A DNA stretch of 64,000 bases from Eledone cirrhosa (GCA_964016885.1 OZ024760.1:22196001-22260000), one strand, 5' to 3'. Positions 1,361 through 59,017 are shown, counted from the first letter of the stretch. Translations and numbers: made by a program. Notes: generated by a model from the letters alone, not told the origin.

Positions 1361-1410
1361 TTTCCTGATGATTTTTTTTTCGAATGAAACAGTTCTAGTC
1401 CTGTAGAAGC
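1361..1410 (+). ncRNA. Type I hammerhead ribozyme (PLE pLTR family with CTAG loop III)
   Basis: ttc-CTGATGA(1365-71)-stem II-GAAA(1386-89)-cag ttctagtc ctg-TA-gaa; GUA triplet, predicted cleavage after 1405. Same family at 14565 and 32273; followed by a TATTGAGTAC motif. Confidence 0.75.
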
Positions 1411-1599
1411 CTTTCCTATTTTTCTATATTAAAGTTGTTGTTTACACTCTAATAATGTATTGAGTACCTTACTTACTGCGGGTAGCCACTCCCCACCCCC
1501 CCGATTGAACCTGGGATGCACATACATACACATATATATACCGTTTATATGACTATGTCTCTATAAATGAACGCGGGTGTTTAAAGGGTAATATATGAA

Positions 1600-2050
1600 G
1601 AGAGAGAGAGAGAGAGAGAGAGAGCGCCAGAGAGAGAGATAGAGAGAGGGGGTTGTATTGGGTAAGATGCTTAAGTAGGAAAGAGATAGAGTGACAGAGA
1701 GAGAGAGAGATGGTGAGAGAGAGAGAGGGTGAGAGAGAGAGGGGGATGGTTGTATTGGGTAAGAAGCTTAAGTAGGAAAGAGATAGAGTGACAGAGAGGA
1801 AGAGAGGGAAAGAGAGAGAGAGAGAGAGAGGGGGTGAGAGAGAGAGGGGGGATGGTTGTATTGGGTAAGAAGCTTAAGTAGGAAAGAGATAGAGTGACAG
1901 AGAGGAAGAGAGGGAAAGAGAGAGAGAGAGAGAGGGGGGAGAGAGAGGGAGAGAGGGTGAGAGGGTGAGAGAGAGGGGGGATGGTTGTATTGGGTAAGAA
2001 GCTTAAGTAGGAAAGAGATAGAGGTGACAGGGAGGAAGAGAGGGATAGAA
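1600..2050. repeat. About 4 copies of a ~105-125 bp unit (ggttgtattgggtaagaagcttaagtaggaaagagatagag plus GA tract)
   Basis: Core recurs near 1651, 1748, 1854 and 1983. Confidence 0.85.
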
Positions 2051-2249
2051 ATATTTAGGGCAATTCTCAGGGAGTAGGCGTACTAAACTGAACTAGATCT
2101 GATCTTCATGTCAGAGGAACATGGCCTTGACCTAGTCAACGAATCAACCTCGAAATCGACGTGCTGCGTTCATATTATAAATTGCCAAATAAATTAACTG
2201 TGGAGATATAAAAGATAAAGAAGCGAAAACCAACCAAACAGTGAGTGTG

Positions 2250-2375
2250 TTCTGGAGTTCAAATCCCGCCGAGGTTGACTTTGCCTTTCATCCTTACGGG
2301 GTCGATAAAATAAAGTACCAGTAATGCACTGGGATAATTGCTGGCCTTGTGCCTAAAGTAGAAACAGTTATTATT
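2250..2375 (+). mobile_element. tRNA-SINE family A (Meta-domain-like), 5'-truncated
   Basis: B-box gagttcaaatccc, core tttgcctttcatccttacggggtcgataaaataaagtaccag, tail gtagaaacagttatt. Confidence 0.85.
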
Positions 2376-2459
2376 TCTGGCAATATTATTACAACAATAT
2401 GACCCTCCCCAAGTATAACAATATATATGTATGTATATATATATATATGTATATATATA

Positions 2460-2648
2460 TAGGAAAATGTTTAACCACGACGAGCTCAAGCCGTTTCGAC
2501 GGCTATTTCTGTCCAGAAATAGCCGCCGAAACGGCTTGAGCTCTGCCGTCGGGGTTAAACATTTTCCTATTATCCACTCTACTACCCTAAGTATTGAGTA
2601 CTCTGGTGCGTTATGGTCCATATGGTTCCTTACCACACCTCTTTCGTT
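2460..2648 (+). mobile_element. Fold-back PLE-pLTR-like element, family F1 (half hammerhead)
   Basis: Inverted arms around tc at ~2512; right arm reads GAAA-cggc..gccg-TC; TA-rich tracts on both sides; 7 related copies in the window. Confidence 0.75.
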
Positions 2649-3011
2649 ATATATATATATATATATATATATATATATATATATATATATATATACATAT
2701 ATATATGTATGTATGATATTATATATATATGATTATATTAAGTATAAATCGAAGTTGCAACTGCCATATTTATATATATTTGAAAATGTATGAAATTCTT
2801 GGTACAGTTAGGTATATTTAATTAAAACAAGGAAAATAATGTCTTTCGCCAGCGACGAATGCGAGAAAGTTCTCCAGGAAAGTTAAGCAGGAATCTTTAA
2901 AAATTTTCCCACCGAAGTTAACAAAGAACTTACTAGATCTACCAAATCATGATATTATAACATTAAATCAAATTGTTTAGAACTACATGTGAAGTCATTC
3001 TTTTCTTTTTT

Positions 3012-3850
3012 TAAAAATAATATGTTGCTGAATGAGGATAAGTTCGAGTTAATCAACTTTGGAAGAAAGGATGTCCTGAAACTACCATACTCTCTTCCTT
3101 CAGGTGAAACTCTCATGGCATCCAACAACGTAGAGACTTGGGAGTAATTGTGGACAACAACATAAGCTGGGCCACTCATATAAACAGCAAAGTTGACATG
3201 GCCCAGAGAATGTGTTCCTGGATTCTCAGAACCTTCCAGTCGAGAAATATCCATATTGTTATCCTTCTCTTCTCCACTTTTGCCCGACCCCACCTTGAAT
3301 ACTGTTGTCCACTGTGGTCTCCACACACGAAACAAAGTATCATGAAAGTTGAAGTACCTCAAAGGTCAATTACAAAAAAGATAGCTGGCATGACAGGCCT
3401 TGACTATTGGAGTCGATTAGAAAAACTCAACCTTTACGCTACATTATCTGCATGATGTGGAAAATTTTCCATCAGCATTGCCCAAATGATGTTGGCATCA
3501 CCTTTAAACTACACCCAAAGCTTGGGCCCCGTGCTATCTGCCAACGACAAAAATCTCGCTGGCATCTCATAACAACAATACGGCACAATTATTTCACCTC
3601 AATTGGCCCCGCTCTCTTTAACATTACACCAAAACACATTAAAACTGAAACAGACCCCATCAAGTTCAAGAAGACTTTGGACAAATTCCTTCAAGAAATC
3701 CCGGATAAGCCTCCTACACCCGGATATGCCTCCGTAAACAATAACTCCCTACCATGGTGCCCAAATCCTGATTTGAAAGACTTCGCCAGGTGGTGCTATT
3801 AAGCTAGACATGGCCTGGGCCAACACTGGCCGAAACCTATCAAAGTTAAG
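3012..3850 (+). mobile_element. CR1/L2-type LINE, 3' fragment of ORF2 (RT C-terminus), frameshifted
   Basis: RDLGVIVDNNISW..HI, LFSTFARPHLEYCCPLWSP and LDYWSRLEKLNLY are typical CR1/L2 ORF2 C-terminal motifs. Confidence 0.9.
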
Positions 3851-56718: not shown

Positions 56719-56814
56719 ATTATATCATAACTATAATAAAGGGTGGAGTGCTGGACTGAGGCCGTTTTATATTTTGTTTTCCCGTTAGTAAAATAAGTTA
56801 GATTACTTTGATAA

Positions 56815-57355
56815 ATAATTGTTTCTACATTTGGCACAAGGCCAGCAATTATTCCAGTTCATTACTGGTTCTTTATTTTATCGACCCCGTAAGGATGAAA
56901 GGCAAAGTTAACCTCGGCGGGATTTGAACTCAGACTATAAAGGGGCGTAACTCTATGCTGCAAAGTATGGCGTCCGACCTTCTACCAATACTGCCAATCC
57001 CTCGCCCTTTGACTAAATAATGAATGAATATTACATAATTTATCTACTAAATTTCGTAGCTGTTGATTAAACATAAATATTCATCATCACCGTTTTACGT
57101 CCGTTCTTCCACGCTAGCATGGGTTAGACGGGTTGTCCTGTTGTGGGCAGTGTCTGGTCGGCTGACCATGCCTTGCTCATACAGGAACTGATTTGGCTTG
57201 ATCTTATATATAATTGTTTCTACTTTTGGCACAAGGTCAGCAAATATCCAGTGTATTACTGGTACTTTATTTTATCGACCCCGTAAAGATGAAAGGCAAA
57301 GTTAACCTCGGCGGGATTTGAACTCAGAATGGCAAGGGCCGTAATTCTATGCGTC
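56815..57355 (-). mobile_element. Two SINE family A copies (56815-57000 and 57210-57355)
   Basis: Reverse-complement core and boxes. Confidence 0.87.
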
Positions 57356-57590
57356 AATATATATATTCTTATATATAATGATTGCTTATTTTAAGATTCA
57401 CTTCTTTAAAAAATTTCAAATGTCAACACTTTCAGTTAGCGTCCGTTATATCATAACATTTATTACATCGCTTATATAAAGCGTAGAAATGCTACAAAGA
57501 TAGCTTATAAAATAGAGTGAAGACCCTTAAAAGACAAAAAAAGAGGTTGCTATTGGCCAGAATTGAACCCCGTATATATACATATATATA

Positions 57591-57816
57591 TAGGAACGAG
57601 TAGGACCCCGACGGCTGAGCTCAAGCCGTTTCGACGGCTAATTCTGGACTAACAAATTTTTATTTTTTATTTTTTTTAGTCCAGAATTAGCCGTCGAAAC
57701 GGCTTGAGCTCAGCCGTCGGGGACCTACTCGTTCCTATTACGCACTCTACTACACTAAGTATTGAGTACATTGGTGCGTTATGGTCCACTTGGTTCCTTA
57801 TCACATTTCCTTCGTT
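57591..57816 (+). mobile_element. Fold-back element, family F1
   Basis: ~62-bp near-perfect arms around a T-rich spacer; (TA)n flanks. Confidence 0.8.
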
Positions 57817-58441
57817 ATATATATATATATATATATATATATATATATATATATATATATATATATATATATATATATATATATATATATATATATATAT
57901 ATATATATATATATATATATATATATATATATATATATATATATATATATATATGTATGTATGCTCAACGCTTCAAAAGCCGATAATTCGGCTTCGTACA
58001 TTGTTTACACACGGATGTCTATCTGTCAGTCTCGAAACTGTTGTCCAGTTATATAGTTAAAATGGCGGCAAGAAAATTGTCATGGATCCTTAGCCTACAG
58101 CGTCTAACCGGTATCTGGAAGATATGGAGTTCAAGTCCTCATAATGGCCGATGACAACTTCTTTTTCCATCTTTTAAAGATCTTCACCCTACTTTATATA
58201 TTATCTTTATAGCATTTTTGCGCTGGAACATATATATATATATTGAATTTAACTAATATGCTATAATAATTTTATACAAACATATGCAGGGAAAATATAT
58301 TGAACGTAGCAAAGAATTATCCATATATATATATATATATATATATATATATATATATATATATATATAAAGAAAAATAGATGAAATCGAAAATGCAATT
58401 GGAGTCTTATTTTTAAAAAAAATATATATATTTATTTGGTT

Positions 58442-58479
58442 CCTTTGCGGGTTTCGCAGTTCTTCTGCTTTTCAAAAGG
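58442..58479 (-). ncRNA. Minimal hammerhead with UUGAAAA (U3:A8) core; U16.1C so probably inactive
   Basis: Minus: cctt-TTGAAAA-gcag aagaa ctgc-GAAA-cccg-CA-aagg; lies inside nested inverted repeats 58366-58557. Confidence 0.6.
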
Positions 58480-58946
58480 TGAGTTGAGATGGAGAAAAAC
58501 CACAGACCCTCCATCTCAACTCGATTGCATTTTCGATTTCATCTCTTTTTCTTTATACTTTCACTCGTGTAGGACACCTCAGTTATTTTTCATTTTGTAA
58601 AAAAAACCTCACTTTCTAATATATATATATATATATATATATATATATATATATATATATATATATATGTAGGAGGTGAGTTTTATTGTAGTACAATAAA
58701 GCAATGCAGATATCGGATAAGTAGCACTCTACAGTTTGTAGGACTGGAGTATAAATAATATATAAGATCAAAAGATGGTTAAAAGAGTTCCATGTATTTT
58801 ATTATGCACATTTCAAAAACAAATATCATCATGCAATAACATTTGCGTTTTCGTCAACTTGTGAATAGTGCAGTTTTAAATCAACATATGTTGATTTAAA
58901 ATTGCACTATCCACAAGTGTGTTTTAACCTTCATATCATGTCTCCC

Positions 58947-59017
58947 TATTTTATCTGACGAAAACGCAAATGTTATTGCATAATGATATTTGTTTTTGAA
59001 ATGCGCATAATAAAATA
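58947..59017 (+). ncRNA. Type I hammerhead ribozyme with 36-nt stem II, in a nested fold-back
   Basis: tattttat-CTGACGA-aaacgcaaatgttatt gcat aatgatatttgttttt-GAAA-tgcgca-TA-ataaaata; 8-bp stem I; inverted copy at ~58760-58856. Confidence 0.85.

Follow-up and report, generated by a model that had tools for sequence, protein, structure and literature searches.

A 64-kb stretch of the genome of the octopod Eledone cirrhosa (GCA_964016885.1; C21:22196001-22260000 in the 2,996-Mb assembly; hereafter the window), made up mostly of microsatellites and short repeats, carries hammerhead ribozyme motifs that recur throughout the genome. The reading that best explains them, to which we assign a probability of roughly 0.85, is that these hammerheads are type I folds at the 3' ends of many (TA)n-inserted repeat families, that six of the families noted in a preliminary description of the window lie downstream of open reading frames (ORFs) of Hydra-clade Penelope-like elements (PLEs), and that single copies are likely passive remnants, cutting mainly as dimers in tandem element transcripts. 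All 15 sites listed in that description are present in the window, and 14 belong to multi-copy hammerhead families. Only seven of them (1361, 18955, 33181, 35542 on the minus strand, 39157, 47687, and 58947) keep a family-typical core and formable helices; seven others (32273 and 37928, and, on the minus strand, 4010, 14565, 19484, 47549, and 58442) are decayed or cut copies of real families, and the remaining one, 27013, is single-copy and unsupported. As a whole, the earlier account is partly confirmed: its observation is largely real, whereas its view of function was overstated.

Hammerhead folds in the window and across the genome

The folds were sought with a descriptor comprising a CUGANGA or UUGANAA core, stem II (with an extra base or a mismatch allowed at its base), GAAA, helix III, UH, and stem I. 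A first, stricter version gave two window matches and was relaxed after the published table of Hydra hammerheads (PMC8557442 supplement). As the descriptor was tuned on the window sites and on that table, the window figure is not blind, and the genome sample serves as the independent test. Strict folds number five in the window (18961, 35655 on the minus strand, 47694, 52073, and 58955) against a shuffle mean of 0.04 and a maximum of 1 in 100 shuffles; allowing a weaker stem II adds the fold at 1365, which gives six against a shuffle mean of 0.18. Bare CUGANGA, in contrast, is not enriched (23 occurrences vs 14-16 +/- 4 in shuffles), and the excess over shuffled controls proposed earlier as a check holds for the full fold but not for the core motif. 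By homology, 28 hammerhead-derived loci were found in the window, a lower bound, as the families of 4010, 19484, and 33181 were absent from the census library; two weak rows (57031-57078 and 57382-57425) that rest on one doubtful seed were excluded from the features described here. Family membership was assessed by genome searches for the families of nine of the listed sites and for one new family, and all searched families are multi-copy except 27013; the families of 18955, 37928, and 58442 were recognised via relatives in sampled loci.

The genome sample comprised 96 stretches of 10 kb taken at fixed steps from 24 chromosome-scale contigs (959,200 bases; C21, C23, C26, and the unplaced contigs were left out). 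It contains 109 folds, compared with 1-4 in five shuffles, 3 in the reversed sequence, and 0-3 for each of ten decoy cores. By core, 95 carry CUGANGA (0 in shuffles) and 14 carry UUGANAA (0-2 in shuffles); a further 4 CCGANGA and 11 CAGANGA folds were found beyond these. A CUGANGA/GAAA/UH core with C3-G8 or U3-A8 pairing is present in the five strict window folds and in the 95 + 14 sample folds, decayed copies lack it, and the U4C and U4A families depart from it at position 4. The mean density is 1.14 folds per 10 kb (bootstrap 0.78-1.52), or approximately 1 per 9 kb, with 43 of the 96 stretches positive and 73 folds remaining after arrays and pairs are merged. Extrapolation would give approximately 3.3x10^5 intact folds genome-wide (confidence interval 2.3-4.6x10^5). 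Four stretches beside the window hold 9 folds in 40 kb, and six more on C21 hold 5 in 60 kb.

A homology census of the sample yielded 280 hammerhead-derived loci, of which 198 are full-span (1 per 4.8 kb; 0-1 in shuffles), and clustering of 138 matches gave 44 groups, 18 of them at more than one locus. The density of one ribozyme fold per 4-5 kb claimed earlier thus fits full-span hammerhead-derived loci genome-wide; as a density of intact folds it is overstated, since 124 of the 198 full-span loci still pass the fold descriptor and canonical or U3-A8 intact folds occur only about once per 9 kb. With 5 strict folds and 28 hammerhead-derived loci per 64 kb, the window is an ordinary, somewhat TA-rich part of the genome (54 (TA)n runs per 10 kb vs 28 in the sample). 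The hammerheads had also been called minimal, which most are not: helix III measures 6-10 nt in 92 of the 109 folds, and domain II spans 12-96 nt. Their description as unannotated is correct as regards Rfam: neither the window nor 150 kb of sequence with 73 descriptor matches contains a hammerhead match at the gathering score (0/73). At E<=10, nearly all of the 150 window matches listed, out of 611, are to microRNA models, and none of those listed is a hammerhead. Because Rfam misses all hammerheads tested, genome annotations understate such hammerheads.

A chance origin of the folds, as random matches in repeat DNA rich in AT and in hairpins, has next to no likelihood. The lack of enrichment of bare CUGANGA and the single-copy state of 27013 would be in keeping with chance, as would the minimum-energy structures of 13 sequences folded singly, none of which was the three-way junction (only 35542 had a clear z-score, -3.1), an outcome that was not used as evidence for or against hammerheads. 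The 95 CUGANGA folds found where five shuffles gave none and the low counts for decoy cores argue otherwise, as do recurrent families, covariation, and a fixed position in pseudo-long terminal repeats (pLTRs). Chance origin is refuted for every site except 27013.

Hydra-clade elements upstream of the hammerheads

Hydra-clade PLEs target (TA)n and have published hammerheads, including that of the octopus element Hydra-1_Obim, which itself prefers (TA)n; according to the accessible part of PMC8557442, the clade is characterised by RWK, DKT, a CxCX5C linker, CxxC, CxH, and GIY-YIG at the C-terminus, without CCHH. In the window, an ORF at 38486-38758 is the end of a PLE endonuclease, and its 91-amino-acid query returned 53,338 first-look candidates in the genome. 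A long relative, locus L061, contains a 790-amino-acid frame flanked by pLTRs on both sides, with an inverted partial copy upstream, and its pLTR carries a complete family E hammerhead with a U3-A8 core, a variable N7, and a long helix III. Over 160 nt, the 39 other best copies of the 35542 family show 99% identity, which marks it as very young, and two of its loci, L242 and L243, show a pLTR-ORF-pLTR arrangement with a 3,017-bp period and, in L243, an open frame of 778 amino acids. Full-length layouts of this kind were found at L242, L243, L245, and L061. Compared by eye with the published Hydra sequences (PMC8557442), the frames of L243 and L061 are single ORFs in which a reverse transcriptase is followed by a C-terminal GIY-YIG endonuclease. 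In particular, the L243 frame contains RWK, DKT, CxCX5C, CxxC, and CxH and no CCHH, and L061 departs from the Hydra motifs in having RWR and one changed linker cysteine. Pfam returned no reverse transcriptase or GIY-YIG match in these two long ORFs and nothing useful in the ORF fragment. When L243:1570-4880 was compared with four contig runs, 441 pieces were recovered in X21 and 9 in X24 (both of unrecorded kind), and 0 in X4 and X12; these figures have no bearing on expression or cleavage.

Hydra-type ORF ends lie upstream of the hammerhead in longer copies of family A (L011), of the 33181 (5 loci), 35542, and 39157 (L245) families, and of families F (L098) and E; in the 47687 family, 12 of 20 loci have such an ORF end, and 9 of these also show the hammerhead. 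The six ORF-linked families of the preliminary description account for 9 of its 15 sites, and the common family E is linked as well. Distances to (TA)n are fixed within each family, in line with element insertion into (TA)n, and pLTRs, an inverted 5'-truncated partner, and an optional tail, all of them Hydra-clade traits, are present. A mismatch at the base of stem II together with a 4-bp helix III occurs in family A and in the 33181, 35542, and 39157 families. A (TA)5 run lies within 200 nt downstream of 70 of the 109 sample folds, compared with 17% of random positions, and DNA homologous to PLE ORFs makes up 1.6% of the sample. A Naiad origin was rejected because the linked ORFs carry a C-terminal endonuclease. 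The proposed origin in a radiation of (TA)n-targeting PLEs is supported by the ORF links, motifs, and (TA)n enrichment and can be narrowed to the Hydra clade. The islands of 100-900 bp bounded by (TA)n were also recovered (13 of the 15 sites lie in such islands, of 95-907 bp), although with 54 (TA)5 runs per 10 kb in the window, bounding by (TA)n alone says little.

The position 4 variants are a property of families. U4C at 33181 and 39157 was considered as decay and rejected, as it is family-wide in 16 of 18 and 25 of 26 copies, respectively (retrieved with U4C-bearing queries). An abundant U4A family (L083, L091, L105, L125, L126, L132, L133, L140, and L174) was also observed downstream of a Hydra ORF; A occupies core position 4 in 24 of its 27 copies, its stem II has 3 bp, and its helix III spans 17 nt.

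Dimers, decay, and the role of single copies

Helix III is perfectly palindromic in 64 of the 109 folds and within two letters of a palindrome in 33 more, a property partly built into the descriptor; these palindromes suggest that cleavage would depend on dimers. The predicted helix III duplex between two copies ranges from -1.7 to -26 kcal/mol, and the monomer hammerhead fold lies 0-7.5 kcal/mol above the predicted minimum. Together with the palindromes, these energies fit the dimer model for PLE hammerheads, as given in the accessible parts of PMC4209133 and PMC6765202. Within 5 kb, 35 of the 109 folds have a same-strand partner, 54 have an inverted one, and 36 have neither; the partner counts are lower bounds, as the sampled stretches are only 10 kb long. 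In the window, inverted pairs have predicted hairpins of -36 to -165 kcal/mol, which would hide the ribozyme on either strand.

A complete element consists of pLTR-ORF-pLTR with a hammerhead in each pLTR. As PLE biology suggests, its GIY-YIG endonuclease would nick (TA)n, and reverse transcription would begin downstream of the ribozyme. Family E copies end past the cleavage site at 10-19 nt in 17 of 34 cases and at 90-99 nt in another 14, and other families also have two such ends; given these fixed ends, the template is likely uncleaved RNA. This agrees with the anole element, whose PLE hammerhead, according to the accessible part of PMC11167929, required added protein for cleavage and was dispensable for insertion in vitro, with initiation being internal on uncleaved RNA. 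As most copies are 5'-truncated, often with an inverted partner, the ribozyme-bearing end is the part that is constantly delivered. Selection would then act on source elements, in which two hammerheads in one tandem transcript may pair via palindromic helix III and excise unit-length RNA; after insertion, most copies would decay near-neutrally and rarely be active in host transcripts. If the predicted hammerheads act at all, they probably do so in tandem element transcripts and in arrays.

Family E breaks in a characteristic way. Among its copies (L081-L176 and the window, e.g., 31873-31984 and 57604-57722), 32 of 34 lack the 5' core, and an inverted partner lies within 200 nt in 18 of 34. In 33 of 34, ungapped similarity breaks off within the 3' strand of stem II, at a point 2-25 nt upstream of GAAA. 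Reverse transcription may stop and fold back at the ribozyme fold, or the pattern may reflect the spread of a short non-autonomous form.

Across ten families, none of 110 core columns splits subfamilies, compared with 61 of 733 other columns; N7 varies. The covariation that had been proposed as a check is present in stem II of group C: of the 21 pairs in an alignment of 27 rows, 24 of them distinct, 11 change on both sides, including 7 of 8 in inner stem II, and 92.0% of cells pair vs 83.8% in shuffled alignments; the number of further pair types does not exceed shuffles. Many of these rows are also descriptor matches, so this test leans towards structure. A C.C mismatch in stem II of group C (alignment columns 23 and 52) is almost invariant while neighbouring pairs covary; it possibly marks a tertiary or protein contact and is only a hint of a loop 1-loop 2 contact. 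Private changes of individual copies were compared between core and other positions, and families E and A are the two least biased for this comparison; the proportions are 12/420 vs 104/3017 in E (p 0.66) and 10/451 vs 65/2491 in A (p 0.75). The simplest reading of these alignments is that selection would act on source elements and that individual copies would decay near-neutrally.

Several observations weigh against the view of the hammerheads as passively decaying ends of Hydra-clade elements. In family E, which was retrieved via its ORF, none of 20 pairs shows a two-sided change. When the ten families are pooled, private changes are rarer in the core (45/2506 vs 468/16262; 1.8% vs 2.9%, p 0.0015); the deficit is significant singly in three families, and the U4A family shows the opposite, its core being changed more often. 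Some copy-level selection could be at work, or minor subfamilies could explain the pooled deficit instead. Moreover, families D, G, H, I, K, 37928, and 58947 showed no ORF within the loci examined; the 58947 hammerhead aligns with the ORF-linked 47687 family. Helix III of families A and E is 16-19 nt long and could form in the monomer, and some tandem arrays have no ORF. One sampled hammerhead family (L251, L100, and L148) follows a non-Hydra PLE endonuclease with a CCHH-type pattern; thus, non-Hydra PLEs also contribute hammerheads.

If the dispersed hammerheads formed an active layer, they would cut host transcripts as monomers or as neighbouring or trans dimers and thereby shape transcription or pre-mRNA fate. 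The number of predicted intact folds, approximately 3.3x10^5, points in this direction, together with the long helix III of families A and E, monomer folds that in some copies lie only 0-1.6 kcal/mol from the predicted minimum, the pooled core deficit, and a palindrome common to related families that makes hetero-dimers conceivable. Such a layer is nevertheless very unlikely, given that families E and A decay near-neutrally, that 54 of the 109 folds have an antisense partner and the window pairs form strong predicted hairpins, and that helix III is so often a perfect palindrome. In the accessible parts of the literature, PLE hammerheads cleave poorly in vitro (PMC4209133), and the anole hammerhead required protein, with no RNA-seq reads ending at its site (PMC11167929). 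The effect on any crossing transcript that was proposed earlier is also unlikely for most copies, as judged from the near-neutral decay in families E and A, the antisense partners, and the anole PLE hammerhead that cuts only with protein.

It is likewise improbable that many dispersed copies are monomers of non-autonomous retrozymes, i.e., short tandem units likely moving via circular RNA, and not truncated coding elements. Such elements have been described (PMC7229834) and have been argued to stem from PLE pLTRs (10.64898/2026.07.22.740005), as far as the accessible parts of both sources go. Arrays in which hammerhead units of 310-556 bp repeat in tandem, with no long ORF, do occur at L086, L116, L118, L148, and L152, some with an inverted unit at one end, and 35 of the 109 folds have a tandem partner; however, no window site lies in such an array, and for 9 of the 15 sites listed earlier, longer copies of the family have an ORF upstream.

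Hammerhead copies and other repeats in the window

The window copies range from intact folds to fragments. Family A is represented by a plus-strand hammerhead at 1360-1411 with an intact core, a weakened 3-bp stem II with U.U at its base, a 4-bp helix III, and a predicted cut after 1405 (ORF link in L011); by an inverted pair at 14564-14642, composed of a minus copy (14564-14613) with core A6 changed and a plus copy (14614-14642) cut after GAAA; and by a plus-strand copy at 32271-32321 whose core is intact and whose helix III is broken. U4C cores are found on the plus strand at 33181-33284, where domain II has 79 nt, helix III is palindromic, stem I has 3 bp, and the predicted cut falls after 33281 (five loci show an ORF link), and at 39154-39204 (palindromic helix III; pLTR-ORF-pLTR copy at L245). 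Intact U3-A8 hammerheads occupy 18955-18997 (plus; family F, 8-nt palindromic helix III, 95-bp island, ORF link in L098) and 52068-52161 (plus; family H, 10-nt palindromic helix III), and a decayed one of family D lies at 58440-58481 (minus), with U16.1 changed and four intact relatives in sampled loci. The 5'-truncated end of the very young family spans 35500-35658 on the minus strand and includes an intact hammerhead (35542-35659) with a GUU site and a predicted cut between 35547 and 35546. Group C contributes an intact hammerhead at 47687-47750 (plus; predicted cut after 47743), with an ORF link in 12 of 20 loci; a long inverted repeat encloses it, and its inverted copy at 47551-47609 (minus) has lost the 5' strand of stem I. 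Similarly, the intact hammerhead of a sister family of group C at 58947-59017 (plus; predicted cut after 59009) is accompanied by an inverted 5'-cut copy at 58797-58856 (minus). The cleavage positions given earlier, after 1405, 47743, and 59009, all parse as putative hammerhead cut sites.

Among the decayed copies, the short canonical hammerhead of family K at 4010-4052 (minus) has a 3-nt insertion and altered helix III and stem I, and the family G copy at 19484-19545 (minus) has relatives with CUGANGA and a paired stem I; a relaxed descriptor accepts the relatives at 4 of 9 loci for family K and at 6 of 9 for family G. That 19484 is a U3-A8 variant was rejected, as its relatives carry a C3 core (CUGANGA in 8 of 9). 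The hammerhead at 37925-37977 (plus) retains its core, but its first stem II pair is broken; a relative in L116 passes the descriptor. In the family I inverted pair at 19178-19284 (both strands), both copies are missing, at the junction, the 5' strand of stem I or a letter of the core, and the pair forms a single long hairpin. The unsupported candidate at 27013-27055 (minus) is single-copy in the genome and fails the descriptor. Family E contributes 3' halves at 2503-2556 (plus; 5' core missing, inverted partner immediately upstream) and 14827-14869 (plus), inverted pairs of 3' halves on both strands at 31873-31984, 35288-35358, and 57604-57722, and two more within 37383-37563 (37383-37429, minus, and 37528-37563, plus). 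The preliminary description contained neither these ten 3' halves nor the intact fold at 52068-52161, the pair at 19178-19284, and the copy at 58797-58856. The C-terminal endonuclease end and 3' untranslated region of a family E Hydra-clade element extend over 38486-39102 (plus) and are joined at approximately 39091-39102 to the end of another family. The segment 38484-39400 therefore runs from the family E ORF end and untranslated region into the pLTR end of the 39157 family, and the ORF fragment at 38486 was rejected as the parent of the 39157 hammerhead because the two families meet at this joint.

A short motif, TTGAG, is repeated in several unrelated families, either downstream of the hammerhead or in their tails (1449-1456, 2592-2599, 28541-28549, 32364-32371, 39280-39285, and 47813-47820). 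Further long perfect inverted repeats that adjoin (TA)n, with no hammerhead family match, lie at 26464-26726, 30040-30350, and 46300-46490. Minisatellites occupy 5260-7732 (23-bp unit, 107 copies), 23556-25225 (87-bp, 19 copies), 11395-12188 (202-bp unit derived from a short interspersed element, 4 copies), and 29393-29536 (20-bp, 7 copies). By eye, the fragments at 2990-3840, 28780-29310, 31250-31520, and 44640-45485 resemble what we take to be ends of long interspersed elements and an internally deleted mariner-like element.

Significance and comparison with known systems

The families seem to be new members of a known clade; their unusually large scale appears not to have been reported before, and cores of the U3-A8, U4C, and U4A types occur family-wide. 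A literature search on hammerhead and U4A found no precedent for a family-fixed U4A core, a search for a genome-wide hammerhead count for an octopod found none, and the terms 'hammerhead' and 'ribozyme' are absent from the repeat paper PMC13282606. A bolder proposal, which we regard as doubtful, is that this is the most ribozyme-dense animal genome yet described (approximately 3x10^5 intact hammerheads in dozens of families or more), that U4C and U4A cores are working natural variants, and that long-helix-III families would cut nascent host transcripts so often that introns have been cleared of them on the sense strand or the host has come to use them. The reason for hammerhead retention in PLEs is still open in the accessible parts of PMC8557442 and PMC11167929. 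With copies numbering several hundred thousand, both intact and broken and found on either strand, the genome would offer a high-powered test of host pre-mRNA cutting in vivo, and dozens of families that differ in core, helix III length, and age provide a natural panel for cleavage assays.

Published hammerhead counts reach 126,247 in the axolotl (28 Gb), over 6,000 in a coral, and approximately 5,000 in a mussel (accessible part of PMC7229834), and the giant squid has 235 Rfam hammerhead matches (PMC6962438). The axolotl figure corresponds to approximately 4.5 per Mb, compared with approximately 110 per Mb here, a roughly 25-fold difference that is approximate since the methods differ. Non-LTR retrozymes (PMC7229834; 10.64898/2026.07.22.740005; both as far as accessible) likewise carry type I hammerheads in short tandem units, and arrays occur in the genome sample; in contrast, the window sites are dispersed ends, none of them in tandem units without an ORF, an arrangement that was found at L086, L118, L148, and L152. 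Minimal PLE hammerheads, as presented in the accessible part of PMC4209133, resemble those described here in residing in pLTRs, in occurring mostly as dispersed single truncated copies, in their palindromic helix III and predicted dependence on dimers, and in a U3-A8 variant known from Schistosoma. They differ in number, with approximately 2,000-9,000 per genome there vs approximately 3x10^5 here under a different descriptor, and in helix III, which is longer here.

The closest likeness is to the Hydra-clade PLEs of PMC8557442, which share a single ORF with the same motifs, (TA)n insertion, and a type I hammerhead near the 3' end, and in whose published hammerheads the base of stem II is often mismatched and helix III 4 bp long. 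In its accessible part, that paper gives one octopus family and few additional families, whereas a large radiation is found here; the hammerheads of its S2 table are CUGANGA throughout, whereas here whole families have U3-A8, U4C, or U4A cores and domain II reaches 96 nt. U3-A8, U4C (in a viroid), and a U10.1.U11.1 mismatch are known as natural variants compatible with some activity (accessible part of PMC3088659); in contrast to these, U4C in Eledone cirrhosa is fixed in at least two amplified retroelement families.

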